Sequence record: OR896820.1
Source: Escherchia phage Stokescottia
Length of the DNA stretch: 64,000 bases
Strand: one strand, 5' to 3'
Numbering within the stretch: the stretch's first letter is position 1; each line of letters opens with the position of its first letter. The translations under genes and the position numbers were made by a program. The notes under the pieces were generated by a model. It was given only the letters and a program-made list of their open reading frames with translations. It searched no databases and was not told the DNA's origin. Positions 6,184 through 49,172 of this stretch are shown in pieces.

Positions 6184-6212
6184 TTGCTTTTTACTGTATA
6201 TATTGGTATAAT
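6184..6212 (+). promoter_or_regulatory. sigma70-type early promoter (TTGCTT-N17-TATAAT)
   Basis: -35 6184-6189, -10 6207-6212; member of repeated promoter family. Confidence 0.6.
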
Positions 6213-6285
6213 ATATTTGTAAGTTGATAAACAAGATCTTTTTGTTGATCCTCTGTTAGCGAAGTACACTATAGGAGTGTTATTT

Positions 6286-7038
6286 ATGGGAAAAGCACGT
6301 CAAAAAAGAGAGAACCGCAATGGTTCAAGAAAGCGTGGCAACAAATATGAGAACAACGTAATTCAGGCTGATTTTTCTAATGATTACGCTAATCCAGTTG
6401 CTAAATCCCTAGTAGGTAAAAACCGCGAGCAAAAATCATATATCAATATGATCAAGAACAACACAGTGACTGTGGGTATCGGTGAGCCAGGTACTGGTAA
6501 AACCTTTATTCCGTCCGTTCTTGCAGCTCAGGAACTCGTAGACATTCACTCAGATATTGAGCAGGTGATTCTCGTACGTCCTAATGAACCTCTAGGTAAG
6601 TCTCTTGGTATGCTTCCTGGTGATCTAGCAGAAAAGCTAGAGCCTTGGTTAGAGCCAATAGCTGATGGTATGAAATGGGCCATCGGTGATCATGCCTATA
6701 AGGGATATGTCGAACGTCAGAAAATTAAATTTTTGGCTATCGAACATGCTCGTGGCAGAACTTTCAACAACTCCTATGTAATTGTCGATGAAGCTCAGAA
6801 TATTTCCGTTGAGGCAATGATTTGTCTCCTAACTCGTGTAGGACAAGACTGCCGTTTAATTATCTGCGGAGATATAGCTCAGAAAGACATTAAAGGTGAC
6901 TCAGGTCTAGCACTCCTTATGGAAGTCTATGAGAAATACGAAAATGCCCCATTCTCAATGATCGAATTGATTGATAACGTTCGTTCTGTTGAGTCTAAAG
7001 CATTCTATGATATTTTTAAAGACATGGGGAAGGTGTAA
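6286..7038 (+). CDS. phoH: PhoH-like ATPase
   Basis: Walker A GEPGTGKTF and PhoH-like layout; RBS taggag upstream of ATG at 6286. Confidence 0.85.
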   Translation: MGKARQKRENRNGSRKRGNKYENNVIQADFSNDYANPVAKSLVGKNREQKSYINMIKNNTVTVGIGEPGTGKTFIPSVLAAQELVDIHSDIEQVILVRPNEPLGKSLGMLPGDLAEKLEPWLEPIADGMKWAIGDHAYKGYVERQKIKFLAIEHARGRTFNNSYVIVDEAQNISVEAMICLLTRVGQDCRLIICGDIAQKDIKGDSGLALLMEVYEKYENAPFSMIELIDNVRSVESKAFYDIFKDMGKV

Positions 7039-7039
7039 T

Positions 7040-7282
7040 ATGGGAAACGTCGTTCATCTGAGCCGTAAAACTAAAATACATCGTACTTCACTGAGTGCTG
7101 CTAATATGATTACACGTAAGGAAGGGGAAGAAAGTCCTAAGACAGCCCTAGCGTGGAAAATTGTAACCTCAAATCCAAATAAACCATTCAATTATAACGA
7201 GCTGAGCACCTCCATAGATATTCTATTAAAAGAAGTTGCTAGAGCTAAAGTAATTGAACAAGCTAAAAAGCTAGACTGGTAA
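7040..7282 (+). CDS. hypothetical protein
   Basis: ATG overlaps phoH stop; internal start of ORF 6971..7282. Confidence 0.45.
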   Translation: MGNVVHLSRKTKIHRTSLSAANMITRKEGEESPKTALAWKIVTSNPNKPFNYNELSTSIDILLKEVARAKVIEQAKKLDW

Positions 7283-7402
7283 TATACAGGCCTGGGTATG
7301 AAAATACTCGGGCCTTTTCTATCAGAAAATTTTATTTGCCTAATGACCGATAATAAAGTAGAATATTCCTTAAATCCTGATAACTATAAAAAGGAAAGCC
7401 AA

Positions 7403-9733
7403 ATGAGCCATCGCATTGAAAAAGTAATTAAACGTGACGGTACTGTAGAAGACTTTGCTCCTGAAAAACTCAATGGTTGGGCGGAGTATGGTTGCAAAAC
7501 AGTTGATGTAAGTTGGTCAGCCATTACTATGGCTGCTCAAAAAACTCTGCCTAAAGGGGTTGTAGATTCCGACACTCTGATGGATGCATTAATTAAAGCT
7601 GCTGAAAGTCTTATTAAAGATAATCCAGCATATGATGTGCCAGCAAAGGAGTTACGTCTTGCGCAAATGCGTAAACGCCTTTATGATTCTTTCGAACCAC
7701 CTTCTCTACGCTTCTTCCATGACCATATGGTTAGCGTAGGTGCATGGGAAGACATGAGTGCATGGATTACCGATGAACAATTTGAAGCTCTGAATCAGGT
7801 TATCGACCATGATCGTGATCGTCTTTTTACTAGTGGTGGGCTGAAGCAGTTCTTTGATAAATATTCCCGTCGTAACATAGCCACTGGTGAAATTTATGAA
7901 ACTCCGCAGTTTGCCTACATGGGTATGGCAATGGCGATGCTATCTCAACCTAACTGGACAATTCTAGATGCAATCGACCTCTACAACGCAATGTCACTCC
8001 ACAAAATCAACGTTCCTACGCCGCCATTGGTTGGTCTGCGCTCTAGTGACCGTGGATTTGCTAGTTGCTGCCTCGTGGATTCCACTGACACGTTGGATTC
8101 AATTGACACCGCCGAGCACATCGTCTTCAAAATGGTCGCAGCCAGAGCGGGAATCGGGTATCATCTTGAAAGCCGATCAATTGCTGATCCGGTGCGAAAT
8201 GGGGCATTCCCGCATTCCGGAAAACTGCCATATTATCGACACATTGACCGCTCAGTAAAGGCCAATACTCAGCAAACTCGTGGTGGTTCTGCCACAGTGT
8301 CTTATCCATACTTCGACCCTGAAATCATTCAATTGATGCAGGTTAAGCAACAACGTGCTACAGATGAGAATAAAATCGATAAGATGGATTATTCCCTGAG
8401 CTTTAACAATCTTTTGTTAAAACGTTATCTTAAAAACGAAGATATTACGCTAATGTCATACTTCTATGCTCCAGAAGTTCATGAAGCGTTTTATAGTGAT
8501 GACGAGGCTAAATTTGAAGAAATCTACGTGGCAGCGGAGAAACGTGTGGCATCTCTTACAAAAATCGACCATGAAGGAAAAACAGTTCCTGCAGCTCCTA
8601 AAGTCTCCGCAAAAGAAATCCTAGATACTTGGCTACGTATTCGAATGGAAACAGGACGTATGTACGCTCATCACATCGGGGAATCTAACCGTCACGGTAA
8701 CTTCCTTGATCCGATCCGTATGACAAACCTTTGTGTTGAAATTACTCAGCCTACACGCCCGTTCCATCATATCACGGAACTGTATAAAACAAAAGAACAA
8801 CTCGATCAAATGAAGCCGGAGGATATTGGTGAAGTATCTCTGTGTAACTTAGGTGGTGTTGTACTTGGACGCATGGAATCTCTGGCCGAGTGGGAAAAAA
8901 CCTGCTACATCCTCCTGAAATTCGTTGATACAATTATTGAAATTCAGGATTATCCGTTCCCAACTATGGAATATACTGCTAAGAAACGTCGTAATGTTGG
9001 TATTGGCCTGATGAACGCAGCAGGTGCAATGGCAGCAGAAGGTCTGGCTTATGAAGGTATTGAAGCCCGTAACTGGATTCACCGTGAGGCTGAAAAACTG
9101 TCTTACTTCCTGCATAAAGCCTCTGTACGCCTAGCTAAAGAACAGGGTGCATGTGAGTGGTTTGATCGTACTAAACCATCTAAAGGAATTCTGGTAATCG
9201 ACACGTACAAGAAAACTGTTGATGAACTGGTATCCGTAGGTCTAGAAATGGATTGGGAGTCTCTGCGTGCAGATATTCTGAAATATGGTATGCGTAACTC
9301 TGTTCTGACTGCTCAGATGCCGGGAGAAAGTTCTTCTGTTCTGTTAGGTGTTACTAACTCTATTGAACCGCCTCGTAAGATTGTATCTATCAAAGGTAGT
9401 GCAGTAAATAAAGTAATTGCAATTGCTCCAGGTGCAACCGATTGGGAAACGTTAATGAGCTATAAACTGGCTTATGATGTAGATCGTATCGAGTGGATCA
9501 AGTGGGTAGCAACTATGCAGAAATTCTTCAGTCAGTCTATCAGTACGAATATGTACTATGACTACACCAAGTTTGAGAATGAAATCATTCCTGGCCCAGT
9601 AGTAGTTCGTGATTTCATGACTGCTGTTAAGTATGGGTGGAAAACTTGGTATTATGCTAACTTCAATACCGCAAATGGTGGAGGTGCTGGAGAAGAAGCA
9701 GCCGGTTGTGCATCCGGTGGTTGTACTATTTAA
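7403..9733 (+). CDS. nrdA: ribonucleoside-diphosphate reductase large subunit (class Ia)
   Basis: N-terminal ATP-cone (VIKRDG), catalytic core, C-terminal Cys pair (CASGGC); start at 7403 after RBS aaggaaag. Confidence 0.9.
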   Translation: MSHRIEKVIKRDGTVEDFAPEKLNGWAEYGCKTVDVSWSAITMAAQKTLPKGVVDSDTLMDALIKAAESLIKDNPAYDVPAKELRLAQMRKRLYDSFEPPSLRFFHDHMVSVGAWEDMSAWITDEQFEALNQVIDHDRDRLFTSGGLKQFFDKYSRRNIATGEIYETPQFAYMGMAMAMLSQPNWTILDAIDLYNAMSLHKINVPTPPLVGLRSSDRGFASCCLVDSTDTLDSIDTAEHIVFKMVAARAGIGYHLESRSIADPVRNGAFPHSGKLPYYRHIDRSVKANTQQTRGGSATVSYPYFDPEIIQLMQVKQQRATDENKIDKMDYSLSFNNLLLKRYLKNEDITLMSYFYAPEVHEAFYSDDEAKFEEIYVAAEKRVASLTKIDHEGKTVPAAPKVSAKEILDTWLRIRMETGRMYAHHIGESNRHGNFLDPIRMTNLCVEITQPTRPFHHITELYKTKEQLDQMKPEDIGEVSLCNLGGVVLGRMESLAEWEKTCYILLKFVDTIIEIQDYPFPTMEYTAKKRRNVGIGLMNAAGAMAAEGLAYEGIEARNWIHREAEKLSYFLHKASVRLAKEQGACEWFDRTKPSKGILVIDTYKKTVDELVSVGLEMDWESLRADILKYGMRNSVLTAQMPGESSSVLLGVTNSIEPPRKIVSIKGSAVNKVIAIAPGATDWETLMSYKLAYDVDRIEWIKWVATMQKFFSQSISTNMYYDYTKFENEIIPGPVVVRDFMTAVKYGWKTWYYANFNTANGGGAGEEAAGCASGGCTI

Positions 9734-9742
9734 TAAAAACAA

Positions 9743-9770
9743 GGAGATCTTCGGGTCTCCTTTTTCTTTG
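9743..9770 (+). terminator. rho-independent terminator after nrdA
   Basis: Hairpin GGAGATC-TTCG-GGTCTCC followed by T-run. Confidence 0.65.
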
Positions 9771-9779
9771 AAATTTTAC

Positions 9780-9809
9780 TTGCTAATCGCTACCAGATTT
9801 GCTATAATA
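9780..9809 (+). promoter_or_regulatory. sigma70-type early promoter
   Basis: TTGCTA 9780-9785, TATAAT 9804-9809. Confidence 0.55.
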
Positions 9810-9839
9810 TTCCTGAAATAGTGAGAAAGAGGAAAATCA

Positions 9840-12369: not shown

Positions 12370-12372
12370 TAT

Positions 12373-12733: not shown

Positions 12734-12756
12734 AGCCCTTCGGGGCTATTATATTT
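12734..12756 (+). terminator. rho-independent terminator
   Basis: AGCCC-TTCG-GGGCT hairpin followed by T-rich tract. Confidence 0.55.
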
Positions 12757-12765
12757 AAATTTCAT

Positions 12766-12794
12766 TTGCTTATTTAGTGAAATTTAAATATAAT
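12766..12794 (+). promoter_or_regulatory. sigma70-type early promoter
   Basis: TTGCTT 12766-12771, TATAAT 12789-12794. Confidence 0.55.
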
Positions 12795-12819
12795 ATATTT
12801 TATAAATTGGAGGTATATA

Positions 12820-13101
12820 ATGATTTCAGCCAAAGAAGCTCAAGAACTCGCAGGATTAACAGAAGTACCCGCATTTCTAAAGTTTATAGAAGAAAAGATT
12901 GTAGAAGCTGCTAAGTCTGGAAATACAGAAGTAATTATTCGAGATAATCCTTACGCTAGGTGGCTATATAATCCTAGAGAAATGCCAGGAGCAGCTAAAT
13001 CAGTACTAAAAACCTTATCGGATAAGGGGTATCATCTCTCACAATACTACCGAGAAGCCGCCTTTGTAGACATGGGTCTTAAAATTAGTTGGGAGGTATA
13101 A
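12820..13101 (+). CDS. hypothetical protein
   Basis: ORF track; RBS ggaggt upstream. Confidence 0.5.
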   Translation: MISAKEAQELAGLTEVPAFLKFIEEKIVEAAKSGNTEVIIRDNPYARWLYNPREMPGAAKSVLKTLSDKGYHLSQYYREAAFVDMGLKISWEV

Positions 13102-13577: not shown

Positions 13578-13597
13578 TAAATAAATTAAAAATTTTC

Positions 13598-13626
13598 TTG
13601 CTTAAAGCCCTCTAATTTAGTATAAT
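13598..13626 (+). promoter_or_regulatory. sigma70-type early promoter
   Basis: TTGCTT 13598-13603, TATAAT 13621-13626. Confidence 0.55.
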
Positions 13627-13653
13627 ATTCATATTGAAAGTGAGGAGGGCTTT

Positions 13654-13938: not shown

Positions 13939-14384
13939 AGATTACTGAATTTAAAGGTACTTATAGTTTCTTATCAAACTTTTATTTATCACCAATTACT
14001 TTCGAATATCTAAATGAAATATGGCATGCTGATACTGTAGAACATGCTTTTCAGGCTATGAAATCCGACCAAAAAGATGATGTAGCTCATGTACTGCGCT
14101 CCCTAAATGCAGGAGTTGCCAAACGTAGAGGACGTAAATTAACTCTACGCTCTGACTGGGATAAGGTAAAAGATGATGTAATGCTAGAGCTTTTACGGTT
14201 AAAGTTTGCAATCCCTGATTTGAGAGACAAACTGTTAGCAACAAAAAATGCAACTTTGATCGAAGGAAATACCTGGGGAGATACATATTGGGGTGTTTGC
14301 CGAGGCATTGGGGATAATACTCTAGGTGTTCTTTTGATGCAGGTAAGGTCTGAAATTAAAAGAAGCTTACAGTTAATAAATTAA
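13935..14384 (+). CDS. NADAR (YbiA-like) domain protein
   Basis: FLSNFY and EHAFQA.K motifs typical of the NADAR/DUF1768 family. Confidence 0.7.
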   Translation: MKITEFKGTYSFLSNFYLSPITFEYLNEIWHADTVEHAFQAMKSDQKDDVAHVLRSLNAGVAKRRGRKLTLRSDWDKVKDDVMLELLRLKFAIPDLRDKLLATKNATLIEGNTWGDTYWGVCRGIGDNTLGVLLMQVRSEIKRSLQLIN

Positions 14385-14392
14385 AAATTCAT

Positions 14393-14421
14393 TTGCTAAA
14401 CGCTTCAAATTCTCGTATAAT
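14393..14421 (+). promoter_or_regulatory. sigma70-type early promoter
   Basis: TTGCTA 14393-14398, TATAAT 14416-14421, then ATAAATTGAT. Confidence 0.6.
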
Positions 14422-14459
14422 ATACTTCATAAATTGATAAACAAAAAGGAAAACAAATA

Positions 14460-15546: not shown

Positions 15547-16248
15547 ATGAAAGTAAAACCATTTGGTATGCTAGATATTGAATCTCTAGGAACTCCAGGA
15601 GATTGTGGTACTACTCATATCGCAATGCCTTCTTTCGCTTTTGTGGCTATGCATGGAATTGATAAAGACCCTGATCTAGTATTTGTTACTTTGGATGTGC
15701 AAGATCAACTTAATTCTGGTGCCAAAGTCACAGCATCTACTCTAGCATTCTGGATGGATCAAGCTAAAAATAGTCCGTCTGCTATCCACATTATGGAAGC
15801 TATGAAGGAACGTAATCCAAAACTGATTGCCTTCCAAAATGGTAAACATCATTGCACTAATAAATTAGGCTCAAACTATGCTGCCTTCTCTATGGCTCAA
15901 AATATTATGGAGTTGGCTCTAGGCGAAAATGCTTTGTATTATGGCAATGGCCCAGAGTTTGATATGACTATCTACTCTGCAAATACGTTCCATGCTGGAA
16001 CCAATGAAGAGGTAGTTCCGTGGAAATTCTGGAATTTGGGCAATGTTCGATCTCTTCGTAATCTCTGGATGCAAGCTGGATACAGTTATAAAGCTCTAGA
16101 GACCGAAGGTATTAGCTGGGCAATAGCTAAAATGGAGAAGATGGACACTATTCGTTATGGGATCTATCCAGTTAAGCACGACCCAGCATTCGATGCCTTA
16201 GTTGAGAGCTATTGTGTTGCAGCTATGATCGAAAAAATGAAAATTTGA
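15547..16248 (+). CDS. DEDDh-type 3'-5' exonuclease
   Basis: Exo I LDIESLG, Exo II NGPEFD, Exo III H-x4-D (KHDPAFD). Confidence 0.65.
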   Translation: MKVKPFGMLDIESLGTPGDCGTTHIAMPSFAFVAMHGIDKDPDLVFVTLDVQDQLNSGAKVTASTLAFWMDQAKNSPSAIHIMEAMKERNPKLIAFQNGKHHCTNKLGSNYAAFSMAQNIMELALGENALYYGNGPEFDMTIYSANTFHAGTNEEVVPWKFWNLGNVRSLRNLWMQAGYSYKALETEGISWAIAKMEKMDTIRYGIYPVKHDPAFDALVESYCVAAMIEKMKI

Positions 16249-16249
16249 T

Positions 16250-16278
16250 TTGCTTCCGGCTCCAAAATTCTGTATAAT
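16250..16278 (+). promoter_or_regulatory. sigma70-type early promoter
   Basis: TTGCTT 16250-16255, TATAAT 16273-16278. Confidence 0.6.
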
Positions 16279-16318
16279 ATATTCATAAATTTGAGAAAAC
16301 AATAAAAGGAAAACAAAT

Positions 16319-17193: not shown

Positions 17194-17576
17194 TAATTTA
17201 AAAGCTAGTAAATCGGTAGACGAAAGCCCAAGCATCTTACCTCGCAGCAGCGGTTGAAATACGAGGTTAAATAAGACCGCTGACCATACTATAAAGTATA
17301 ATCTATTGGAGATTATGTTTATTACACCAGCCTTTTAAGCTGACACGTAAGAACAAAGCGTCGTTGATATTACCGACACAACTTCAAAGATCAACATTTA
17401 AGTATGAAAGCTGAAAAGTTTAAAGAACTCAAACTTCTAAACTTCTAAAGCTAAAAGATGCAAAGTATTCGTTGATGATTCAAACCCTAGATCAAAGGTA
17501 CATGGCTCATAAGATATGGCCTGTGGCGCCTCTAGGCTGTTTATCGGTTTACTAGTTTCACAATTTAAAAATGTAT

Positions 17577-17605
17577 TTGCTAATTTACTAAGTTATCTGT
17601 ATAAT
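17577..17605 (+). promoter_or_regulatory. sigma70-type early promoter
   Basis: TTGCTA 17577-17582, TATAAT 17600-17605. Confidence 0.6.
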
Positions 17606-17635
17606 ATATTTTTAAATTGATGAAACGAGGCTATT

Positions 17636-17953: not shown

Positions 17954-18408
17954 AAAGAATGAAGGCAGCTTTGCTTTTAGTAGCTGCCCTTACCTTCAGC
18001 TTTAGTAGTCAGGCATCGCACGATGCAAGAGAAATAGATTGCATTGCTAAAAATATCTATTTCGAAAGTCGTGGTGAGGGCATAAAGGGAATGACGGCGA
18101 TTGCACATGTTACTAAAAACCGTGTAAACTCCGGTAAATTCCCAGATTCCTACTGTAAAGTAGTATATCAGTCTAACCAGTTCTCTTGGGTATCTAAGAG
18201 ACCAAAAGTTGATAAAACTGATGAGGCTTGGCAAACCGCTAAGAATTTAGCTAGAGTGATATACTACGTTGATTTACCACAAGATCCTACACATGGAGCA
18301 CTATACTTCCACAGTGGTAAAGATAAACCTTACTGGACAAAGAAGTTTAAGAAAACAACTAAGATTAAGGGACATACGTTTTATAAACCTGTTGTCACTA
18401 AAACTTAA
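17941..18408 (+). CDS. SleB/CwlJ-family cell wall hydrolase, secreted
   Basis: Signal peptide; CIAKNIYFESRGE...HVTKNRV...YCKVVYQ..QFSW...GALYFH. Confidence 0.75.
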   Translation: MAGVKRMKAALLLVAALTFSFSSQASHDAREIDCIAKNIYFESRGEGIKGMTAIAHVTKNRVNSGKFPDSYCKVVYQSNQFSWVSKRPKVDKTDEAWQTAKNLARVIYYVDLPQDPTHGALYFHSGKDKPYWTKKFKKTTKIKGHTFYKPVVTKT

Positions 18409-18416
18409 AAATTTAC

Positions 18417-18445
18417 TTGCTTAAATACTTAAATTTCCGTATAAT
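18417..18445 (+). promoter_or_regulatory. sigma70-type early promoter
   Basis: TTGCTT 18417-18422, TATAAT 18440-18445. Confidence 0.6.
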
Positions 18446-18646
18446 ACTTCCATAAATTAATGAGAGGAAGCGAAATATGAAATCAGTTGTAATTATTGGT
18501 GTTAACACTCGCGGTATTCGTACTACGAAAACTGTTAAAACTTCTAACGTTGCTGAAATCACTACGAACCCTAAAAAGTTTGATTTCGCCAAAGTCTCAG
18601 CAGTTATGACAGAACAATCTTTTAACCAAGCGTTAGGAATGAAATA

Positions 18647-19090
18647 ATGGAAGAGAATATTTTAGATGTTTTGCGTAGAGCTTTGCAGGATTCTAAGTTT
18701 AATGGTTCTGATAAAGAAGTCGCCAAAAGCTATCAGACCATAATTGGGGATCTTCAGCGTATTGATAAAGATTTCATCACTTCTGAACAATTTGTGTCTT
18801 ATCTCAAAGCTCAACTAAAAAGCATTAACCAGATGAAAGCTAAACTTCATGGTCAAGATCTCGATAGTTATAGCCTACAGTCTGCTCAGTATGAATACAT
18901 TCTAAATAAGTGGTTGCAGGAGTATCTGCCCCCTCAGTTATCTGATACTGAGATTCGTAAATACTTTGCAGAATTAGTTAAGCTAAACCCTGGAATTACA
19001 AAGGGTATGCTGATGAAAGCGATTAAGGAAGAATTTCCTGGGCGTTATGATGGTGGTACTGCTGCTCAGATTGCTGGCGAATTTAATTAA
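18647..19090 (+). CDS. GatB/YqeY domain protein
   Basis: C-terminal KGMLMKAIKEEFPGRYDGGTAAQIAGE matches YqeY-like domain. Confidence 0.65.
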   Translation: MEENILDVLRRALQDSKFNGSDKEVAKSYQTIIGDLQRIDKDFITSEQFVSYLKAQLKSINQMKAKLHGQDLDSYSLQSAQYEYILNKWLQEYLPPQLSDTEIRKYFAELVKLNPGITKGMLMKAIKEEFPGRYDGGTAAQIAGEFN

Positions 19091-19098
19091 AAATTCAT

Positions 19099-19127
19099 TT
19101 GCTAAATGCTTATAAATTCTGTATAAT
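19099..19127 (+). promoter_or_regulatory. sigma70-type early promoter driving non-coding region
   Basis: TTGCTA 19099-19104, TATAAT 19122-19127; no ORF downstream. Confidence 0.6.
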
Positions 19128-19140
19128 ATATTCATAAATT

Positions 19141-19545
19141 AGGGAACAGCGAGCCGATTACGCTGAGTGCAGAATCCCAACCGGAGCGCATTGAATAGAG
19201 TCGGTGGGTTAGTTGTAAAACTAGTACACAGGGGGCGGCAATTCCGGTTAGTGGCTAGAACGTGTAAAATGAGGCGTCTGAAACCTCTCCCCTAAACTCT
19301 TCTCTAATTTATAAATAGTGGGGTGTGGAAATCACTTATGTAGTAACACTGCCGTCCTAGTATAATTGGTATTATCAAGCCGTAACTGGTGGAAGATGTA
19401 GGTTCGAATCCTACGGTCGGTAAGAACTGGATAACTGGTGCTTTTAACGTAAAAGCTTCCGAGGTTAGTTGCGCACTGCCTAAACCACGCGGTAGTTGGT
19501 TCCAGACTAACCAACCAGTCTGCTGAATAGTTTTATTACGATTTA
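19141..19545 (+). ncRNA. candidate structured non-coding RNA(s), unassigned
   Basis: Promoter-driven ~400 nt without ORF; contains T-arm-like GTAGGTTCGAATCCTAC and a terminal hairpin GTTGGTT-CCAGACT-AACCAAC followed by T-rich tract. Confidence 0.3.
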
Positions 19546-22732: not shown

Positions 22733-22939
22733 TTTTTGACACCTCCTAGTATATAGAAAATGTGTGTCTCTTTGATCACTCATCCATAACATATACTTTA
22801 CACTACCCCAGCGAAAATGTCAAGGGGTCTTTAAAAATTGCCCCTGGATTTTTAGTGGGGTCACAAATTTTGGTCCTCACCACTTATCTGCTACCCTTAA
22901 GTGCCCTATGATTTTCCTCTAAAAAGTTAAAAAATTTGA

Positions 22940-22968
22940 TTGCTTGAATGCTAAATTCTCTGTATAAT
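22940..22968 (+). promoter_or_regulatory. sigma70-type early promoter
   Basis: TTGCTT 22940-22945, TATAAT 22963-22968. Confidence 0.6.
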
Positions 22969-22995
22969 ATATCTATAAATTTGAGAGAGGAACCA

Positions 22996-23517
22996 AATAT
23001 GAATGTTGATGAGCTAACACAGCACCTCTTATCTAGAGGATTTGATACAGATAAATATCATTGCTGGTTAAGTCCGGAAGGGTGGCTAACAGTCCCGTTG
23101 TATGATTTCTCTGGAATGTTGAGGGGCTATCAAACTTATAATCCTTCTGCTCCAAAAGGTCATGGTAAGTGCCCCTTTGAAGCTAAATACTTTACTTATT
23201 CTACTACACAGTGTGTATGGGGACTAGAAACTCTCAATGGGGATGAAAAAGTAGTATTGATTGCTGAATCTGTATTTAAGGCAGTTGCATTACATAATGC
23301 TGGTTATCCAGCCCTAGCAATGTTAGGTTCTTCTCCAGGAAAAGCGTTATTAAAGCAACTGAAATTACTACCCTTTAAATTGGTAGCTGTCGGGGATAAT
23401 GATCCTGCGGGTGAAAAATTTGCTAGAAAATTAAACGGCTTTGTTTCTCCCGTAGATGTGGATGAGATGTCTACCGAAAACTTGAAAAATTTTCTTGCTA
23501 TGAAGCTAAATTTCTAA
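22996..23517 (+). CDS. hypothetical protein (possible Toprim-like fold)
   Basis: Start at 22996 after promoter/RBS; VVLIAES....VGDNDPAG resembles Toprim E...DxD. Confidence 0.45.
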   Translation, partial: NMNVDELTQHLLSRGFDTDKYHCWLSPEGWLTVPLYDFSGMLRGYQTYNPSAPKGHGKCPFEAKYFTYSTTQCVWGLETLNGDEKVVLIAESVFKAVALHNAGYPALAMLGSSPGKALLKQLKLLPFKLVAVGDNDPAGEKFARKLNGFVSPVDVDEMSTENLKNFLAMKLNF

Positions 23518-23523
23518 TATAAT
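23495..23523 (+). promoter_or_regulatory. sigma70-type promoter inside the 3' end of the upstream CDS, driving tRNAs
   Basis: TTGCTA 23495-23500, TATAAT 23518-23523. Confidence 0.5.
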
Positions 23524-23538
23524 ATATCTTATAAATTC

Positions 23539-23627
23539 GGAAGAATAGCATAACGGTATTGCAGCAGATTGCTAATCTGTCGGTTTGAAATATAGCCTTG
23601 TGGGTTCGATTCCCACTTCTTCCGCCA
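23539..23627 (+). tRNA. tRNA-Ser (anticodon GCT), long variable arm
   Basis: Acceptor GGAAGAA/TTCTTCC, loop TTGCTAA, long variable arm, discriminator G, CCA. Confidence 0.75.
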
Positions 23628-23632: not shown

Positions 23633-23710
23633 GGTTCTCAAGCTCATATGGTATGAGCACCCGGCTCATAACCGGAAGGTACGTAGGTTCGAATCCTCGG
23701 GGAGCCACCA
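23633..23710 (+). tRNA. tRNA with CAT anticodon (Met or Ile-lysidine type)
   Basis: Acceptor GGTTCTC/GGGAGCC, loop CTCATAA; T-stem only 3 clean pairs; discriminator A, CCA. Confidence 0.55.
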
Positions 23711-24672: not shown

Positions 24673-24702
24673 CTCCTCCAAACAGAATTTTTAAAAATGT
24701 AC

Positions 24703-24732
24703 TTGCCTTTTGCTTTAAATTTCTGGTATAAT
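24703..24732 (+). promoter_or_regulatory. sigma70-type early promoter
   Basis: TTGCCT 24703-24708, TATAAT 24727-24732. Confidence 0.5.
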
Positions 24733-24762
24733 AATTATATAAATTGATGAAGGAGTTAACTA

Positions 24763-25038: not shown

Positions 25039-25074
25039 CTAATACAGCATTGGGCAAGTTCTTTAAAATTTGAC

Positions 25075-25103
25075 TTGCCCAATACTATAAAACTTGATAT
25101 AAT
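25075..25103 (+). promoter_or_regulatory. sigma70-type promoter upstream of tRNA block
   Basis: TTGCCC 25075-25080, TATAAT 25098-25103. Confidence 0.5.
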
Positions 25104-25169
25104 ATTTATCTAATTTGGAAACATATTTAAAAGTGTTTAAATGAGAATTTTTTGAATACTTCTAAATAT

Positions 25170-25500: not shown

Positions 25501-25782
25501 AATTGAAGGAGCTGCTGATGCATCCTGAAAACTTCTTTATTTACTGCGCGGATAAGTCGCTGAAACGTAGAATTAACAAAGTCTATCATTATCGTGCTAG
25601 TCAACAGCCTTATGTATATGCTTTTGACGGTGATCACATTCCCCTAGAACAATTATCTTGTGATTACATGATATTGAAGAACTTTGACGAGACGAAGATC
25701 TCAAGCGTTCATAATCGACAGAATCCATTAACGTGGAAATATAAGAAGAAAAAGAAAGGCATCAAATTCTTAAAAAATGTAG

Positions 25783-25811
25783 TTGCTTAGTTTCCAAAAG
25801 TTCTGTATAAT
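25783..25811 (+). promoter_or_regulatory. sigma70-type early promoter
   Basis: TTGCTT 25783-25788, TATAAT 25806-25811. Confidence 0.6.
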
Positions 25812-25840
25812 AATTACATAAATTGAACTGGAGAAGCAAC

Positions 25841-27540: not shown

Positions 27541-27690
27541 GACACTATAAAGTTTACTTATTATGTAGGTTCCGGTAGATCGGCGGGTCTATTCTGGCAT
27601 TTAAGAGAGGTCTCGCAAACTTCTTTGTCAGCCGTGGGGTTGGTAGCCTCCAGGCGGCCTACACAATAAGTAAATTTATTAAAAATTCAT

Positions 27691-27719
27691 TTGCTATTCT
27701 GCTTAATTCTCTGTATAAT
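27691..27719 (+). promoter_or_regulatory. sigma70-type early promoter
   Basis: TTGCTA 27691-27696, TATAAT 27714-27719. Confidence 0.6.
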
Positions 27720-27904
27720 ATATTTTATAAAGTGAAGAGAAGGAAAGCAAAATGAAACACAAGATAGCTCAAGTTTTTATGGCATTATGGTGTATGCCAA
27801 TAGCTGTAACAGCTTTTAATCTAGATACTTTTACTATAGAAGAAAAATATATCGGATTAGTTAGCGGCTTTAGTATACTTGGCTTATCTTTGTTGTGGTT
27901 GAAG

Positions 27905-28344: not shown

Positions 28345-28363
28345 ATTTCAAGAAAAAACGCAG

Positions 28364-28392
28364 TTGCTTGATGCTTAATTTCTTGTTATAAT
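28364..28392 (+). promoter_or_regulatory. sigma70-type promoter driving leader RNA and tRNA block
   Basis: TTGCTT 28364-28369, TATAAT 28387-28392. Confidence 0.6.
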
Positions 28393-28629
28393 ATTTATAT
28401 AAATTGATGAGGAGAAATCCTCATCATAGTTCACTAAGGTATTAGCTCGACCTAGGACTGGCTGCCAAAAAGCACGATCCCCATGATTCGGGAGAAGTTC
28501 TAGATTGGTCCACTAGATTCAGCGGCAACTGAATAGTGTATTGGGTTTGCGAGATGACGCAGTTCCTTCCGCTCGAAGCGAAGGTGCTGTAGTTACGCCG
28601 AGCTAATAGCCTTAGTAAACTAAAGAATT

Positions 28630-31069: not shown

Positions 31070-31251
31070 ATTTAAGGACTAGTATGTTTAAACTGTTAGT
31101 AGTTATCTGGTATAGTCAATCAAATAGAGCGAATACCTCCCACGTTATAGACTTTAATACTAAAAATGAAGCTGAAAAAGCATATGCTAATTTAATAGAA
31201 CGTAATAAAGAATCTCGTAGTATAGTTTATGAAGTGACTAAACTTTATTAA
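31057..31251 (+). CDS. hypothetical protein
   Basis: ORF track; 5' end overlaps tRNA-Thr, so the true start is probably downstream. Confidence 0.4.
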   Translation: MPSTNLRTSMFKLLVVIWYSQSNRANTSHVIDFNTKNEAEKAYANLIERNKESRSIVYEVTKLY

Positions 31252-31259
31252 AAATTCAT

Positions 31260-31288
31260 TTGCTTTCTCTCTTATTTCTTGTTATAAT
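31260..31288 (+). promoter_or_regulatory. sigma70-type early promoter
   Basis: TTGCTT 31260-31265, TATAAT 31283-31288. Confidence 0.6.
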
Positions 31289-31318
31289 ACTTGTATAAAT
31301 TAATGAGAGGGAAACCAA

Positions 31319-33576: not shown

Positions 33577-33593
33577 ATTCTGAAATAATTCAT

Positions 33594-33622
33594 TTGCTAA
33601 ACCTCTCTTTTCTTGCTATAAT
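33594..33622 (+). promoter_or_regulatory. sigma70-type early promoter
   Basis: TTGCTA 33594-33599, TATAAT 33617-33622. Confidence 0.6.
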
Positions 33623-33652
33623 ATGTTTATAAATTGATGAGAGAGGTTTGAA

Positions 33653-35624: not shown

Positions 35625-35718
35625 GATTGATACTAAATCAACTTACTAGCAAAAGCAAATAATGACAAAGCCCAGCTTGCACTTTTGCGACTGGGCTATT
35701 TTTATAATAAAATTTTAG

Positions 35719-35747
35719 TTGCTTAGATGCCCAAACTTTTGTATAAT
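35719..35747 (+). promoter_or_regulatory. sigma70-type early promoter
   Basis: TTGCTT 35719-35724, TATAAT 35742-35747. Confidence 0.6.
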
Positions 35748-35778
35748 ATGTTTATAGATTGAGGCAAGAGGATTAAAT

Positions 35779-40221: not shown

Positions 40222-40263
40222 GAAAAGATTTATACATGTAGTAGATTAAGATAAAAAAGTAGT

Positions 40264-40292
40264 TGACTTTTAGTCCTAGTTATTATATAATA
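40264..40292 (+). promoter_or_regulatory. sigma70-type early promoter
   Basis: TTGACT 40264-40269, TATAAT 40287-40292. Confidence 0.55.
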
Positions 40293-40324
40293 TATACATA
40301 AATTAGTTAAGAGAGGTATATATT

Positions 40325-41045: not shown

Positions 41046-41078
41046 AAGCCTGATCTTAGCTGATCAGGCTTTTATTTT
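41046..41078 (+). terminator. rho-independent terminator
   Basis: AAGCCTGATC...GATCAGGCTT hairpin followed by T-run. Confidence 0.7.
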
Positions 41079-41080
41079 AC

Positions 41081-41109
41081 TTGCTTTTTGCTAAAAATTT
41101 TGGTATAAT
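41081..41109 (+). promoter_or_regulatory. sigma70-type early promoter
   Basis: TTGCTT 41081-41086, TATAAT 41104-41109. Confidence 0.6.
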
Positions 41110-41218
41110 ACTTATATAAATTGATGAGAGACATTAATATGATTATGTCACATATCTTTGTATGGATTTTAGTCATATTAATGGCTTTCTTTGTCCTTCA
41201 AGAAATAGGAGTATTACG

Positions 41219-43233: not shown

Positions 43234-43341
43234 GTATATAGCTGAGGCTATTATTAAACGAATCATACAAGCGATAGCAATACTTACAATCATTTGTATT
43301 GCTATTGGCACAGGATTAGGCATTTTAATTAAAAGTTTTAT

Positions 43342-43370
43342 TTGCTAAAATGCTTAAGTTTCTGTATAAT
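43342..43370 (+). promoter_or_regulatory. sigma70-type early promoter
   Basis: TTGCTA 43342-43347, TATAAT 43365-43370. Confidence 0.6.
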
Positions 43371-43400
43371 TACTTTATAAATTGATGAGAAGGAATCAAA

Positions 43401-43832: not shown

Positions 43833-43850
43833 GTAATTAAAAAAATTCAG

Positions 43851-43879
43851 TTGCTTTAAGCCTTAAAATTCTGTATAAT
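43851..43879 (+). promoter_or_regulatory. sigma70-type early promoter
   Basis: TTGCTT 43851-43856, TATAAT 43874-43879. Confidence 0.6.
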
Positions 43880-43911
43880 AAGTTCATAAATTAATGAGAG
43901 AGGAAATTCTA

Positions 43912-45265: not shown

Positions 45266-45466
45266 ATGATAAAACGTCTTGTTTATCAGGCACCAAAGAT
45301 TGTAACTGAGTATTTTGTATTACTGCCTCAGATTGTATTTCTAACAGCATTATTTAATATACTTTTTCGACATCTAGGAATAACGGAAAATATCTTCTAC
45401 ACTTCTGGACTACTTCCTTTTATGTACGAAGGCATCATCGTGGCAATTAACGGAGTTCGTAAATGA
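45266..45466 (+). CDS. membrane protein
   Basis: ORF track. Confidence 0.4.
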   Translation: MIKRLVYQAPKIVTEYFVLLPQIVFLTALFNILFRHLGITENIFYTSGLLPFMYEGIIVAINGVRK

Positions 45467-45924
45467 CAGCACTACAACAACTACAGAATTACTGGTTTGA
45501 TAACCAATTTAACGATCTCTTCATCCAGTTGTTTGTCGAAACGAACGGACGCTTCAACTACCGATTCTTTAATAAGTTTCACGAAACAAAATTCTCGCAT
45601 ACAGAAATTAACGCAGCGATCCAAGACCTAACTGGTTCTAAAGTAGTTCAATATCGTGAAGTAGACTTTACACCAGATTGTTTTGGGTTTGAATTGTTTA
45701 AGAAAGCATATAAATTTGGTAAGTTTGAGGATGCTCGTCAATGGGTTCATGATTTCTGGTACAACACTGATATTGTTCCTAGTCGTGTACTGATTCTTAA
45801 CTGGATTGCTAAACAACATCCACCTAAAGCTCAATCGTCCTTCTTACCAACTGACACAGGAAACCTCTACCATGACAGAAAAGAAAAATCCATTGCTGGA
45901 GCAGATGAAGGAATGGGAGAGTAA
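45463..45924 (+). CDS. hypothetical protein
   Basis: ORF track. Confidence 0.5.
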   Translation: MTALQQLQNYWFDNQFNDLFIQLFVETNGRFNYRFFNKFHETKFSHTEINAAIQDLTGSKVVQYREVDFTPDCFGFELFKKAYKFGKFEDARQWVHDFWYNTDIVPSRVLILNWIAKQHPPKAQSSFLPTDTGNLYHDRKEKSIAGADEGMGE

Positions 45925-46243: not shown

Positions 46244-46249
46244 TTCTAG

Positions 46250-46495: not shown

Positions 46496-46496
46496 T

Positions 46497-46943
46497 ATGA
46501 GAGAAAAAGTAAATGAATTACTAATCGAGGAAGCTAATAACTTCCCAATAAATAGGTTTGTCAAATCGGATGGATCTATTAATAGAACTAAGATTAAGCA
46601 GCTACATCCCGACTTTCAGCAAGAAGCACTAAATCTTATATTTATCAAGAAAGCTGTTGCAGTTCATGGAGCTTTCTTTGGGTATGAGCGTGTAAATTAT
46701 AAAACAATGCAACAGCAAGTCGAGATCTATTGTCCAGATCATGAAGGGTATTATTGGCAAACTGCTAGATCTCATTTAGAAGGGCATGGTTGTCGACTGT
46801 GTGCACACAAGGTTGTGCAGCGTGTCACGGATTATGGAACTTATACCGTACCAGCATGTTATCATAAATTTGTAATTGACGATAATCATATAGTTTGGTA
46901 TAATAAGTTTTCAAAGTTAAGAATGGAGATAAATAGTGAGTAG
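46497..46943 (+). CDS. hypothetical protein
   Basis: ORF track. Confidence 0.5.
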   Translation: MREKVNELLIEEANNFPINRFVKSDGSINRTKIKQLHPDFQQEALNLIFIKKAVAVHGAFFGYERVNYKTMQQQVEIYCPDHEGYYWQTARSHLEGHGCRLCAHKVVQRVTDYGTYTVPACYHKFVIDDNHIVWYNKFSKLRMEINSE

Positions 46944-47226: not shown

Positions 47227-47447
47227 CAATTATTTTAGTAGTTATGTTATTCATCGTAGTACTTGTATCTTTTGCTATTATGCGTAGAGCTAGAGAACTA
47301 GCAGAAGATCTAATAAAATTACGTGGTGAGGTAGCGGGTCTCAAACTACAACGTGAAGCTCTCAAGCTATTCGTAGCTCAAGGTAGTGTAGAGCATACAG
47401 CGGAAGACTTCATCGTATATCTTAAACGTTACATGGGAGTTAAATAA
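47214..47447 (+). CDS. membrane protein
   Basis: N-terminal TM helix. Confidence 0.45.
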   Translation: MEIIAIILVVMLFIVVLVSFAIMRRARELAEDLIKLRGEVAGLKLQREALKLFVAQGSVEHTAEDFIVYLKRYMGVK

Positions 47448-47632
47448 TGGAAACACTTTTTCTTTTAATGCTCGTAGGTTCTCTGTTACTAATACTAGCA
47501 CTTCTACTAATCTGCAACATTCTTAATAATAAGAATCTAGAGCTAAAGTGGGAGAATCAAATCCTTAACCGTGAACTTAAACAATATAACATTGCAGCCC
47601 ATAAACTGTTAGACAAACTGGAGAATATATAA
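47447..47632 (+). CDS. membrane protein
   Basis: N-terminal TM helix. Confidence 0.45.
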   Translation: METLFLLMLVGSLLLILALLLICNILNNKNLELKWENQILNRELKQYNIAAHKLLDKLENI

Positions 47633-48246
47633 TGTTTACACAACAACCTATTCAAGTAGTACCGGATCATGAACTGAATACGTGGGATTATAGCTTTAAA
47701 GATTTAACCGCTACTGTACAATTTAAGTCTATGAAGCTAACATTTGCACACAATGACCTTAGAGCATGTAAAGATCTTGAGGATAAGCTCGAAGATGCTC
47801 GTAAGATTTTTGGCAAGGCTCGCATCCCAGCTGATAATCTAATTAACGCATTAATCGATGCAGGGTACAAACTTGTGAAGACTGAGGTGAACCGCCCTAG
47901 TACTCCAGTGACTATTAGAGATCCGTGGCAGTCCGGGACAATCTCAATGCTGAATAACTCCGATAAAAGATTAATGTCGGATATGCACAATGTTCCTTGT
48001 GGGGGTGTGGTAAGTAGTACGCAGTCATATAAGTTTGTGGAAGATTACGGCCCTTCTGTACAGTTGAAACATACTCAAGAAGCTTTTGAATCTGATATGC
48101 GAAGCGTAGCACCTGCGGATGCTGGAGTTTCTAGGAGTTCTGTTTGTACTATTCATTTTAATAATCCTAATAAACATGGAAGTTTAGAAGATGCTATTAT
48201 GGAGGCGTTGGGAGCTGCTATTAATGAAGATAAGAGGGGTAATTAA
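47632..48246 (+). CDS. hypothetical protein
   Basis: ORF track. Confidence 0.5.
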   Translation: MFTQQPIQVVPDHELNTWDYSFKDLTATVQFKSMKLTFAHNDLRACKDLEDKLEDARKIFGKARIPADNLINALIDAGYKLVKTEVNRPSTPVTIRDPWQSGTISMLNNSDKRLMSDMHNVPCGGVVSSTQSYKFVEDYGPSVQLKHTQEAFESDMRSVAPADAGVSRSSVCTIHFNNPNKHGSLEDAIMEALGAAINEDKRGN

Positions 48247-49136
48247 TGGGATTTTATAGTAATAGAAAACCAAAAGGTGTAACTGGTAAATTCGCAGTTG
48301 AAGAAAGACCTTTTCCACCAGTCGATGTAGAGAAACTACGTAAACTTCTAGAAATGCTAGAAGGTTGCCATGAACGTTGTTATTCTGAACTCTCTTTAAA
48401 TGAAAAACGTGTTGTTGAGATGTTCTGTATTCGTTCAGCTAGAACAGCTAAAGGTACTTCTCCAAAAGATGAAGTAAAAGAATACAGAGTTCTAGTGATG
48501 CATGCTTGGGCACAACGTTTTGCAGTTCATTCGCTTCAGGAATGGTTTAATCTTCCTGCATATAAAGATTTCCATGTTTACGAAGATGAAGTTATGAATT
48601 ATAATGAGTTATATGGTTTGTCCTTCAAAAAGACAGGCTCACCGATGCATGATGCACTCAATTCATTCCCTGATCATTACCTTCCAGTTCGTGAATACAG
48701 AGATCGTGAAGGAAATAAACCCTGCTTCACTATTTGGAATAAGTCTAAGACGATATCTGATCTAGATAATTATTGGTTCCGCACAAAAGAAGGATTCCTA
48801 GGAACAGAACCTTTACCTAAGGATCTCAAACCTATCCTTCCTCCTGCGAAACCTAAGCATGAAGTAACGATTGCTATTAATAGAATAATTCTAGGAGCAG
48901 ATGATCTTACTAAACAAATCGCCGCAGTTATCGCAGTTCTGTTTGATGGTACAAATTCTTCTACACGTTATGAGAAGCTAACGGATAACAAATTGCAGAT
49001 ACCTAACGAGTTGTATGAGAGTTCGTGCAAGATCTATGATAACTTTAGTAAAGTAGATTACCCCGTGAGATCCATCAAAGAACTCATGGAGTATGCGGAG
49101 ATGGGGATGAAAGGAAATCTCATGTTCGATGAATAA
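48246..49136 (+). CDS. hypothetical protein
   Basis: 296 aa; last plus-strand gene before the repeat region. Confidence 0.5.
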   Translation: MGFYSNRKPKGVTGKFAVEERPFPPVDVEKLRKLLEMLEGCHERCYSELSLNEKRVVEMFCIRSARTAKGTSPKDEVKEYRVLVMHAWAQRFAVHSLQEWFNLPAYKDFHVYEDEVMNYNELYGLSFKKTGSPMHDALNSFPDHYLPVREYRDREGNKPCFTIWNKSKTISDLDNYWFRTKEGFLGTEPLPKDLKPILPPAKPKHEVTIAINRIILGADDLTKQIAAVIAVLFDGTNSSTRYEKLTDNKLQIPNELYESSCKIYDNFSKVDYPVRSIKELMEYAEMGMKGNLMFDE

Positions 49137-49143
49137 ACTCTAC

Positions 49144-49172
49144 TTGACGTTATGATTTCTGCATGTTATAAT
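49144..49172 (+). promoter_or_regulatory. sigma70-type promoter reading into the repeat region
   Basis: TTGACG 49144-49149, TATAAT 49167-49172. Confidence 0.45.

Follow-up and report, generated by a model that had tools for sequence, protein, structure and literature searches.

Putative early promoters with a PN25-type initial transcribed sequence in a T5-like phage

Early promoters of phage T5

The early promoters of phage T5 are textbook strong promoters, and Gentz and Bujard reportedly described them in 1985. Common expression vectors use PN25 as their 'T5 promoter', and promoter escape is often modelled on its initial transcribed region, a standard system for this step. The sequence that we take to be PN25 matches T5P33 at 100%. 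The T5 GenBank record AY587007 annotates the early promoters T5P6-T5P37, and NC_005859 annotates promoter features of 75 bp. The wording of the T5 annotation is 'putative early promoter T5P8-T5P32' and 'repeat b/c', and the repeats b/c read TATAATATTTATATAAATTGATGAG and TGTATAATATATTCATAAATTTGAGAGAG. Primer extension confirmed some of the T5 promoters only (PMC7472727), and ATATT is found in the discriminator of every T5 early promoter known so far (Klimuk et al. 2020, PMC7472727). A literature search returned no relevant map of T5 transcription starts or of T5 RNA-seq data.

The function of the initial transcribed sequence (ITS) has been studied on N25. According to passages in two papers that cite Kammerer et al. 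1986, replacing positions +3 to +20 of N25 lowers productive full-length RNA ~10-fold (PMC12464699, PMC5961368). Work by the Hsu laboratory determined that escape is fastest with the native ITS, which is A+T-rich and purine-rich (PMC12464699), and productive yield correlates with purine content (PMC5961368).

The promoter family in the window

The window, which is the whole stretch of 64,000 nucleotides analysed, is colinear with T5 nt 1-59,000 at an identity of 84-95%, its sequence differs from T5 by 5-15%, and T5-like Salmonella phages match it at up to 99% identity. These matches indicate that the source is a T5-like phage (Demerecviridae). A generic sigma70 consensus scan finds no excess over shuffled sequence (48 vs 51.7 and 56 vs 61.9) and is without discriminating power, therefore the family is defined by an extended motif or a PWM instead. 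The motif AAAAATTCATTTGCTW-N17-TATAAT has 19 matches at ≤3 mismatches vs 0.02 expected, and a PWM spanning only the sequence up to and including the -10 gives 28 sites at a cut-off score of ≥20. The hand-curated set contains 30 sites, 27 on the plus strand (first base of the -10 at 6066 in the first site and at 49167 in the last) and 3 on the minus strand (-10 at 598, 3993, and 61702). A TTGACA...TATAAT pair at 5968 on the minus strand, which lacks the downstream block, and a site at 54715 on the minus strand, which has the block and lacks a good -35, are left out of the family. The predicted features are as follows, with the position of the -10 given for each.

6030..6097, plus strand: promoter-like, -10 at 6066, -35 TTGCCA; just outside 6184-49172; upstream features present, discriminator contains G+C, downstream block missing
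6171..6238, plus strand: early promoter, -10 at 6207; T5P30 orthologue; variant ITS GTAAGTTGATAAAC; long leader of ~73 nt to a phoH-like CDS
7323..7389, plus strand: early promoter, -10 TAGAAT at 7359; T5P29 orthologue; heads nrdA; terminator hairpin immediately 5', downstream block weak
9767..9834, plus strand: early promoter, -10 at 9803; T5P28 orthologue; heads nrdB; terminator immediately 5', downstream block partial (GAAATAGTGAGAAAGAGG)
12753..12821, plus strand: early promoter, -10 at 12789; T5P27 orthologue; ATAAATT then GGAGG
13585..13652, plus strand: early promoter, -10 at 13621; T5P26 orthologue; ITS variant ATTGAAAGTGAGGAGG
14380..14448, plus strand: early promoter, -10 at 14416; T5P25 orthologue; ATAAATTGATAAAC; SD further 3', ATG 38 nt past the -10
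16237..16304, plus strand: early promoter, -10 at 16273; counterpart of T5 'repeat c copy 4'; ATAAATTTGAGAAAAC; SD further 3'
17564..17631, plus strand: early promoter, -10 at 17600; T5P23 orthologue
18404..18471, plus strand: early promoter, -10 at 18440; T5P22 orthologue; ATAAATTAATGAGAGG
19086..19153, plus strand: early promoter, -10 at 19122; counterpart of T5 'repeat c copy 3'; ATAAATT kept
22927..22994, plus strand: early promoter, -10 at 22963; counterpart of T5 'repeat c copy 2'; ATAAATTTGAGAGAGG; +1 to +16 identical to PN25; heads a 172-aa primase-like CDS
23482..23550, plus strand: early promoter, -10 at 23518; element unannotated but present in T5
24691..24758, plus strand: early promoter, -10 at 24727; 18-nt spacer; T5P20 orthologue; ATAAATTGATGAAGGAG
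25062..25129, plus strand: early promoter, -10 at 25098; T5P19 orthologue; variant ITS CTAATTTGGAAAC
25770..25837, plus strand: early promoter, -10 at 25806; T5P18 orthologue
27678..27746, plus strand: early promoter, -10 at 27714; orthologue of T5P17 and 'repeat c copy 1'
28351..28418, plus strand: early promoter, -10 at 28387; beside T5 'repeat b copy 3'; full block ATAAATTGATGAGGAG
31247..31314, plus strand: early promoter, -10 at 31283; orthologue of T5P16 and 'repeat b copy 2'
33581..33648, plus strand: early promoter, -10 at 33617; orthologue of T5P14 and 'repeat b copy 1'; ATAAATTGATGAGAGAGG
35706..35773, plus strand: early promoter, -10 at 35742; T5P13 orthologue; terminator hairpin 5'
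40250..40317, plus strand: early promoter, -10 at 40286; -35 TTGACT; T5P11 orthologue
41068..41135, plus strand: early promoter, -10 at 41104; T5P10 orthologue; upstream A/T region overlapped by a terminator T-run (T5 'repeat a')
43329..43396, plus strand: early promoter, -10 at 43365; T5P9 orthologue
43838..43905, plus strand: early promoter, -10 at 43874; T5P8 orthologue; top PWM score; ATAAATTAATGAGAGAGG
46863..46930, plus strand: promoter, -10 at 46899; -35 TTGACG; weak downstream block; orthologous T5 position has a promoter feature in NC_005859
49131..49198, plus strand: promoter-like, -10 at 49167; -35 TTGACG; without ATAAATT or GA block; at the boundary of early region and terminal repeat; last copy within 6184-49172, doubtful as a family member
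3962..4029, minus strand: early promoter, -10 at 3993; orthologue of T5P31 and 'repeat c copy 5'; ATAAATTTGAGAGGAG
567..634, minus strand: early promoter, -10 at 598; 18-nt spacer; T5P32 orthologue; ATAAATGAGAGAC
61671..61738, minus strand: early-type promoter, -10 at 61702; full block; drives an 88-aa lipoprotein-like ORF in the receptor-binding/receptor-blocking (oad/llp) region

A preliminary description of this DNA had placed at least 25 copies in the range 6184-49172. The range opens with the -35 of the 6207 site and closes with the -10 of the 49167 site, and the 26 plus-strand sites inside it bear out the count, however, the family also occurs outside the range and on the minus strand. 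The assignment of the copies as sigma70-type promoters serving early genes and tRNA blocks is upheld. The statement that they precede most early genes is not, since promoters are found before ~19-22 of roughly 80 ORFs, where they head short operons.

Several members lead into tRNAs. The 19122 promoter has no CDS next to it and drives a tRNA-like element (19351-19422) and tRNA-Arg (19925), the 25098 promoter drives tRNA-Tyr, tRNA-Glu, and tRNA-Phe, and the 27714 promoter drives a short ORF followed by tRNA-Pro, tRNA-Met, and tRNA-Lys. The 28387 promoter has no ORF, its GA block pairs with TCCTCATC further 3', and tRNA-Ala and tRNA-Leu lie downstream. The copy at 23495-23523 had been described as lying in the 3' end of a CDS and driving tRNAs, and both features are found. 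The -35 and spacer of the 23518 promoter encode the final residues (ENLKNFLAMKLNF, then the stop) of the 172-aa CDS 22999-23517, the TAA stop of which adjoins TATAAT, and the putative TSS at 23531 is ~8 nt 5' of the tRNA-Ser start (23539).

Comparison with the T5 annotation shows that 24 of the 30 copies map to T5P8-T5P32 or 'repeat b/c' positions (flanking homology 83-99%). The copies at 19122, 22963, 16273, and 28387 appear in AY587007 solely as 'repeat b/c', and one or two copies, such as 23518, are present in both phages but are not annotated as promoters in that record. From the sequence correspondence, the repeats are probably sigma70 promoters of the early class (class II) in a T5-like phage. 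The family and its downstream block are already known; the finding is real and ordinary, and the family matters little as a discovery. Their annotation in the GenBank records of T5 leaves none of the novelty that had been implied.

Core architecture

The elements are arranged in the order A-tract, -35 TTGCTW, 17-bp spacer, TATAAT, discriminator, ATAAATT, and purine-rich GAKGAGAGG. The -35 is TTGCTW (or TTGAC), the spacer is 17 bp in 28/30 sites and 18 bp in 2/30, and TATAAT is exact in 29/30. The A-tract lies ~10 bp 5' of the -35 (the '-43 region') and resembles an UP element; in the columns at -33 to -30, counted from the -10, 25-28 of the 30 sites have A, and each column carries 0.9-1.3 bits. 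The position of this A/T-rich tract is that of a proximal subsite in UP elements of the rrnB P1 type. The 3' half of the spacer is A/T-rich, and its first half and the flanks of the element are not conserved. The discriminator is 6-7 nt long, A+T-rich, and of the ATATTC type, the first base after the -10 being A in 27/30 sites, and the segment from the discriminator through +7 is 86% A+T vs 61% in the background. The T5 early promoters (PN25, P25, P26, P28, and others) share the A-tract, TTGCTW, 17-bp spacer, TATAAT, and ATATT-type discriminator, as well as the initial transcribed region ATAAATT(T/G)GA..GAGAGG.

A G is found directly 5' of the -10 in 20/30 copies. The family does not belong to the extended -10 class of E. 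coli (TGnTATAAT), in which TG is located at -15/-14, one base before the hexamer, whereas the TG of the common family form adjoins the hexamer (TGTATAAT) and is one position off. A scan for the canonical TG flags just four family members (9780, 24703, 25075, and 33594).

The downstream block

The 28 PWM sites were defined without any downstream sequence. At these sites ATAAATT starts 6-7 nt past the -10, exact in 18/28 and with ≤1 mismatch in 21/28, and it is followed directly by GA(T/G)GAGAG(G). The background rate is 0.0087 (0.9%), which gives a binomial P of ~1e-38, and this value together with the 19 motif matches against 0.02 expected rules out chance A/T-rich matches as an explanation. 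ATAAATT is present at just 2/78 other TATAAT occurrences, and within the block it shows the strongest conservation. The conserved block reported 3' of the -10 is therefore confirmed for most copies, however, it is weak or missing at the six sites 6066, 7359, 9803, 13621, 46899, and 49167, which indicates that the block is not obligatory for promoters of this region.

The block could be merely the RBS of the first gene, in which case the alignment with the promoter is an artefact of short leaders. In the 18 copies that head an mRNA, an ATG is found 18-27 nt past the putative start, and the GA block includes GAGG or GGAG at normal SD spacing; since the leader length is nearly constant in these copies, the GA block and the SD are inseparable by sequence alone. 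ATAAATT, however, belongs to no SD and yet is the best conserved part, and it is retained at tRNA-driving and long-leader promoters. The downstream block is kept at 5/7 promoters without a nearby start codon, among them the one with its putative start 8 nt 5' of a tRNA. The purine content at +8 to +18 averages 82% over the family and is still 80% (P = 1e-7) in those seven promoters, where the SD is elsewhere. The extended GA motif is present at 9/19 promoter-proximal genes vs 2/54 internal genes (Fisher P = 4e-5), the latter having a short SD, AAGGA or GGAG, that lacks the extension. The register of ATAAATT, the distribution of the GA motif, and the purine content without an SD lead us to reject an RBS alone, which is highly improbable. 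Additional conserved positions exist beyond the SD, and the downstream block appears to belong to the promoter and not to the gene. The fixed register and the retention of the block without a nearby start codon support the earlier proposal of an initially transcribed or leader sequence common to the copies. A search of the whole window with Rfam for leader and riboswitch families returned tRNAs only, with no known family of either kind downstream of the promoters.

Initial transcribed sequence and promoter escape

The window consensus at +1 to +18 (ATAAATTGATGAGAGAGG) is nearly that of the PN25 ITS, ATAAATTTGAGAGAGGAG, and both are A+T-rich first and then purine-rich on the non-template strand. 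From PN25, transcription would start at the A of ATAAATT, which makes the downstream block the initial transcribed sequence, with an A+T-rich +1 to +7 (ATAAATT) and a +8 to +18 (GAKGAGAGG) that is purine-rich on the non-template strand. Host sigma70 RNAP would recognise an unusually long signal, from the A-tract through the discriminator, and may bind so tightly that escape becomes rate-limiting. Such an ITS would cut abortive cycling and speed escape, resulting in very high output. The start site and the escape effect are taken from the T5 PN25 literature, in which the effect was measured on PN25 and its variants; it is carried to the family by sequence similarity, and we infer its validity for each copy.

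Early class II promoters with an escape-favouring ITS of the PN25 type are very probably the best explanation of the family. The best-documented role for such a block is promoter escape, as measured on PN25, and not that of a regulator target or translation enhancer. The sharing of this ITS by the whole early class, including tRNA promoters, argues for selection on transcription rather than translation. In the mRNA-heading copies the GA block also contains the SD, 6-9 nt 5' of an ATG at ~+25 from the putative start, which places transcription and translation signals in one cassette with a short, weakly structured leader of ~24 nt.

Regulatory and RNA-level roles of the leader

A/U-rich leaders enhance translation in E. 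coli. The leader AUAAAUUGAUGAGAGAGG might act as a translation enhancer at the RNA level that gives early mRNAs priority on host ribosomes. It would do so through an extended SD together with a 5' end that is rich in A/U, free of structure and perhaps a binding site of ribosomal protein S1. Initiation regions of promoter-proximal genes have less structure than those of internal genes (mean MFE -2.3 vs -3.7 kcal/mol, P = 0.02), and their purine runs are longer (8.8 vs 6.2 nt), which is consistent with this role. The tRNA-only promoters also keep the block, however, so translation is not its sole reason, and the searched literature contains no experiment on T5 leaders. An enhancer role is therefore a tentative reading and a rather unlikely one.

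In another reading, the discriminator and leader may serve, perhaps alongside the escape function, as a handle by which a phage factor controls the early class as a whole, either gpT5.026 on RNAP or early-mRNA shut-off. The block is specific to the early class, being absent from the orthologues of P1 and P2, the pre-early promoters of T5. In T5 the main difference between early and late promoters is the discriminator (ATATT), and gpT5.026, an RNAP-binding protein proposed to act through the ATATT discriminator 5' of +1, weakens the contact of RNAP with the -5/+2 region; its loss raises early transcripts and lowers late ones ~5-fold (PMC7472727). The discriminators of the window are of the ATATT type, and gpT5.026 is encoded at 45463-45924 with 97% identity. 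However, the effect of gpT5.026 is moderate in vitro and the protein is non-essential, and the mechanistic link is a hypothesis in that study itself (PMC7472727). The proposal covers -5 to +2, with the discriminator as the target, and not the transcribed ATAAATT/GA block. Additionally, a gpT5.026 homologue was not detected in the 40-kb locus, part of the genome, of a Vibrio phage that bears the block. Control by a phage factor is unlikely on this evidence, slightly more so than an enhancer.

Conservation of the +1 to +18 leader (AUAAAUUGAUGAGAGAGG) reaches from phages of Escherichia and Salmonella to the T5-like phages of Klebsiella and Vibrio and takes in tRNA precursors. A further reading is that this leader, beyond favouring escape, is an RNA tag read by a phage or host factor, which would coordinate translation priority or timed decay of the early class. 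The parallel would be T4 RegB, which cuts GGAG in early mRNAs, and we consider this reading improbable.

Distant relatives and the origin of the likeness

The block is also found in distant relatives of T5. It is present at 12/19 core-defined sites of Klebsiella phage Sugarland and at 11/15 core-defined sites of Vibrio phage Pylo, the proteins of which are 22-48% identical. These phages bear on whether the copies are alike because of copying or recombination, as in mobile promoter/stem-loop cassettes of the T4 type, with the block hitch-hiking. The T5 annotators entered the elements as 'repeats a, b, c', and several copies are located immediately 3' of terminator hairpins, between small ORFs; in comparison with T4-type PeSL, terminator hairpins adjoin ~6/30 copies. 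The information profile, however, reveals conservation that is position-specific and uneven, with no conservation of the spacer first half and flanks, and the copies agree with the T5 elements at the orthologous positions, which speaks against homogenisation in recent times. The recurrence of the pattern in phages with proteins just 22-48% identical points to long-term selection on individual positions, and copying is a poor candidate for the origin of the likeness. The architecture of the PN25-type early promoters is common to Klebsiella and Vibrio T5-like phages and could aid promoter annotation in Demerecviridae genomes.

The T5 early promoter family

One 6-kb piece of the window shares 99.2% identity with Salmonella phage vB_SalS_ABTNLsp9, and ~450 T5-like phages were matched. 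Local BLAST determined that nt 59016-105 of phage T5 (AY587007) are colinear with window 1204-60207 at 76-96% identity, mostly 84-95%, and since the alignment runs in reverse orientation, the T5 minus strand corresponds to the plus strand of the window. The window is laid out as follows:

6-49 kb: early region of T5, which holds the tRNA cluster
49.3-60.2 kb: terminal-repeat, pre-early region
60.8-62.6 kb: region of receptor-binding and receptor-blocking genes

ARAGORN finds 21 tRNAs, and Rfam adds two tRNA-like hits, 19351-19422 and 23633-23707 (tRNA model, 35.5 and 40.3 bits), that are absent from the ARAGORN output; at the matching places the T5 annotation has a pseudo-tRNA and a tRNA-Met.

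The promoter pattern given in the preliminary description matches the window 19 times when as many as 3 mismatches are allowed, where 0.02 matches are expected. A position weight matrix (PWM) that ends with the -10 hexamer settles on 28 sites with a score of at least 20, and the same matrix finds 0-2 sites in shuffled sequence even at a far lower threshold. These counts bear out the reported family of near-identical sigma70-type promoters. Curation by eye, with spacers of 16-18 bp allowed, gives 27 copies on the plus strand (6066 to 49167, named by the first base of the -10) and 3 on the minus strand (598, 3993 and 61702). A generic sigma70 consensus scan of 6001-46000 shows no excess (48 sites vs 51.7 in shuffled sequence, and 56 vs 61.9), so standard promoter prediction gives no information in a genome this rich in A+T, whereas the enrichment of the extended family motif is ~1000-fold. 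The suggestion that the promoters precede most early genes was overstated, as they head short operons and stand before ~19-22 of roughly 80 ORFs.

With the copies aligned on the -10, the profile of information content has an A-tract over positions -33 to -30 and TTGC(T) over -23 to -19. The 3' half of the spacer is A/T-rich and moderately conserved, and TATAAT is invariant and followed by A. A further conserved stretch lies at +12 to +24, counted from the hexamer start, and reads ATAAATT and then GA(T/G)GAGAGG once a 6- or 7-nt discriminator is allowed.

The T5 record AY587007 annotates 70-bp features as 'putative early promoter T5P6-T5P37', and what it lists as 'repeat b', TATAATATTTATATAAATTGATGAG, and as 'repeat c', TGTATAATATATTCATAAATTTGAGAGAG, corresponds exactly to the -10 together with the downstream block; NC_005859 carries equivalent promoter features of 75 bp. 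By flanking homology, 24 window copies fall on T5P8-T5P32 or repeat b/c positions. The sequence of PN25, a T5 early promoter studied for escape, matches T5P33 at 100%, and PN25 from +1 to +18 (ATAAATTTGAGAGAGGAG) is essentially the same as the window consensus. Judged by this sequence correspondence, the family is that of the T5 early promoters. The feature is thus an already-known promoter family whose initial transcribed region has already been studied; the preliminary observation is confirmed and its interpretation was right in part. Two pre-early promoters are also conserved:

55558-55623, plus strand: orthologue of T5 pre-early P1
55426-55487, plus strand: orthologue of T5 pre-early P2

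These feature a TTGACA -35, a TAAAAT or TAAGAT -10 and G+C-containing discriminators, and the ATAAATT/GA block is absent at both, so the architecture is specific to the early class.

The downstream block and the ribosome-binding site

The block could be thought to be the ribosome-binding site and nothing else, and the mRNA-heading copies do obtain their Shine-Dalgarno sequence (SD) from the GA block, with 18-27 nt (median 24) between the inferred start and the ATG. This explanation was rejected on four tests. Among the 28 sites, which were picked without any downstream information, ATAAATT lies 6-7 nt past the hexamer exactly in 18 (background 0.06%, P about 1e-51) and with at most one mismatch in 21 (background 0.87%, P about 1e-38), which upholds the reported conservation past the -10; only 2 of 78 non-family TATAATs have it. 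Seven promoters lack a start codon in the usual place, four that drive tRNAs (19122, 23518, 25098 and 28387) and three with longer leaders (6207, 14416 and 16273); ATAAATT is exact in 5/7, and the purine content from +8 to +18 is 80% vs 52% background (P = 1.3e-7). The SDs of operon-internal genes are short (AAGGA or GGAG), and extended GAGAG/GAGAAGG/GAGGAG motifs occur at 9/19 promoter-proximal vs 2/54 internal genes (Fisher P = 4e-5), with purine runs of 8.8 vs 6.2 nt. The initiation regions of promoter-proximal genes are slightly less structured than internal ones. Because of the fixed register, the tRNA and long-leader sites, the purine content and the extended GA motifs, the block is more than a ribosome-binding site and is anchored to the promoter, not the gene, as the proposal of a shared initially transcribed or leader sequence had anticipated.

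Two distant T5-like relatives were scanned with the core PWM alone and then checked for the block. It is present at 12/19 core sites in Klebsiella phage Sugarland (P about 1e-23), whose proteins are 27-75% identical to those of the window, and at 11/15 in Vibrio phage Pylo (P about 1e-22; 22-48%), where some block-bearing sites lie directly 5' of tRNAs. That the block is shared at such divergence speaks for selection acting on each position over a long time, and against recent copying within one genome. Both phages keep the full promoter architecture, of which CATAAA(T/G)TTGA and a purine-rich +8 to +18 are part, at tRNA promoters too, and the examined stretches of their records carry no promoter annotation.

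Function of the downstream block

PMC12464699, citing Kammerer et al. (1986), describes PN25 open complexes as very stable and escape as rate-limiting; replacing +3 to +20 (the 'anti-DSR' variant) lowers full-length RNA to ~1/10 and raises abortive RNA, and escape is fastest when the initial transcribed sequence is the native one, rich in A+T and in purines. Productive yield correlates with the purine content of this sequence (PMC5961368). The block is most likely an initial transcribed region optimised for escape from promoters that bind polymerase very tightly, and it would double as a short, unstructured leader containing the SD. For the start site and the escape effect PN25 is the source, and we infer both for the remaining copies.

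The block may also enhance translation or serve a phage regulator as a handle; either role would be compatible with escape and additional to it. Klimuk et al. noted that ATATT is common to the discriminators of all known T5 early promoters and suggested it as the basis of the differential effect of gpT5.026, which binds the beta subunit of RNA polymerase and is proposed to act on both early and late transcription via the promoter discriminator (PMC7472727). The window encodes a homologue of 153 aa, 97% identical to that of T5, at 45463-45924 (+).

Individual copies and side sites

The copy at 23495-23523 was said to lie in the 3' end of a CDS and drive tRNAs, and it is so placed: the TAA stop of CDS 22999-23517 abuts TATAAT and tRNA-Ser begins at 23539, so that the transcript would start just 8 nt ahead of the mature tRNA. 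The T5 arrangement at this locus is identical. At 28399-28426, in the copy whose -10 is at 28387, a 9-bp hairpin at the very 5' end of the transcript is formed by the GA block, GATGAGGAG, and its complement TCCTCATC, 4 bases downstream. This promoter has no downstream ORF of at least 30 aa and a tRNA-Ala lies ~230 nt further on; the hairpin may form the 5' end of a tRNA precursor or of a small RNA.

Other sites of note:

61671-61738, minus strand: complete early-type promoter with ATAAATT and GA block at the late-gene end of the genome, driving an 88-aa lipoprotein-like ORF that begins MKKFVIALVAAVM; in related phages this locus is annotated as a receptor-blocking/Cor superinfection-exclusion protein
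~54690-54720, minus strand: TATAAT-ATACAT-ATAAATTAATGAGAAAT in the pre-early/terminal-repeat region, with no convincing -35, one of just two non-family TATAATs with the block
5930-6100: divergent promoter-like pair, 5968(-) (TTGACA-N17-TATAAT, heading a minus-strand gene) and 6066(+) (TTGCCA-N17-TATAAT), neither with the early-type block
49131-49230, plus strand: TTGACG-N17-TATAAT without the block, the last site of the range first described; an inverted repeat, GATCCACC...GGTGGATC, comes after it where the early region meets the terminal repeat
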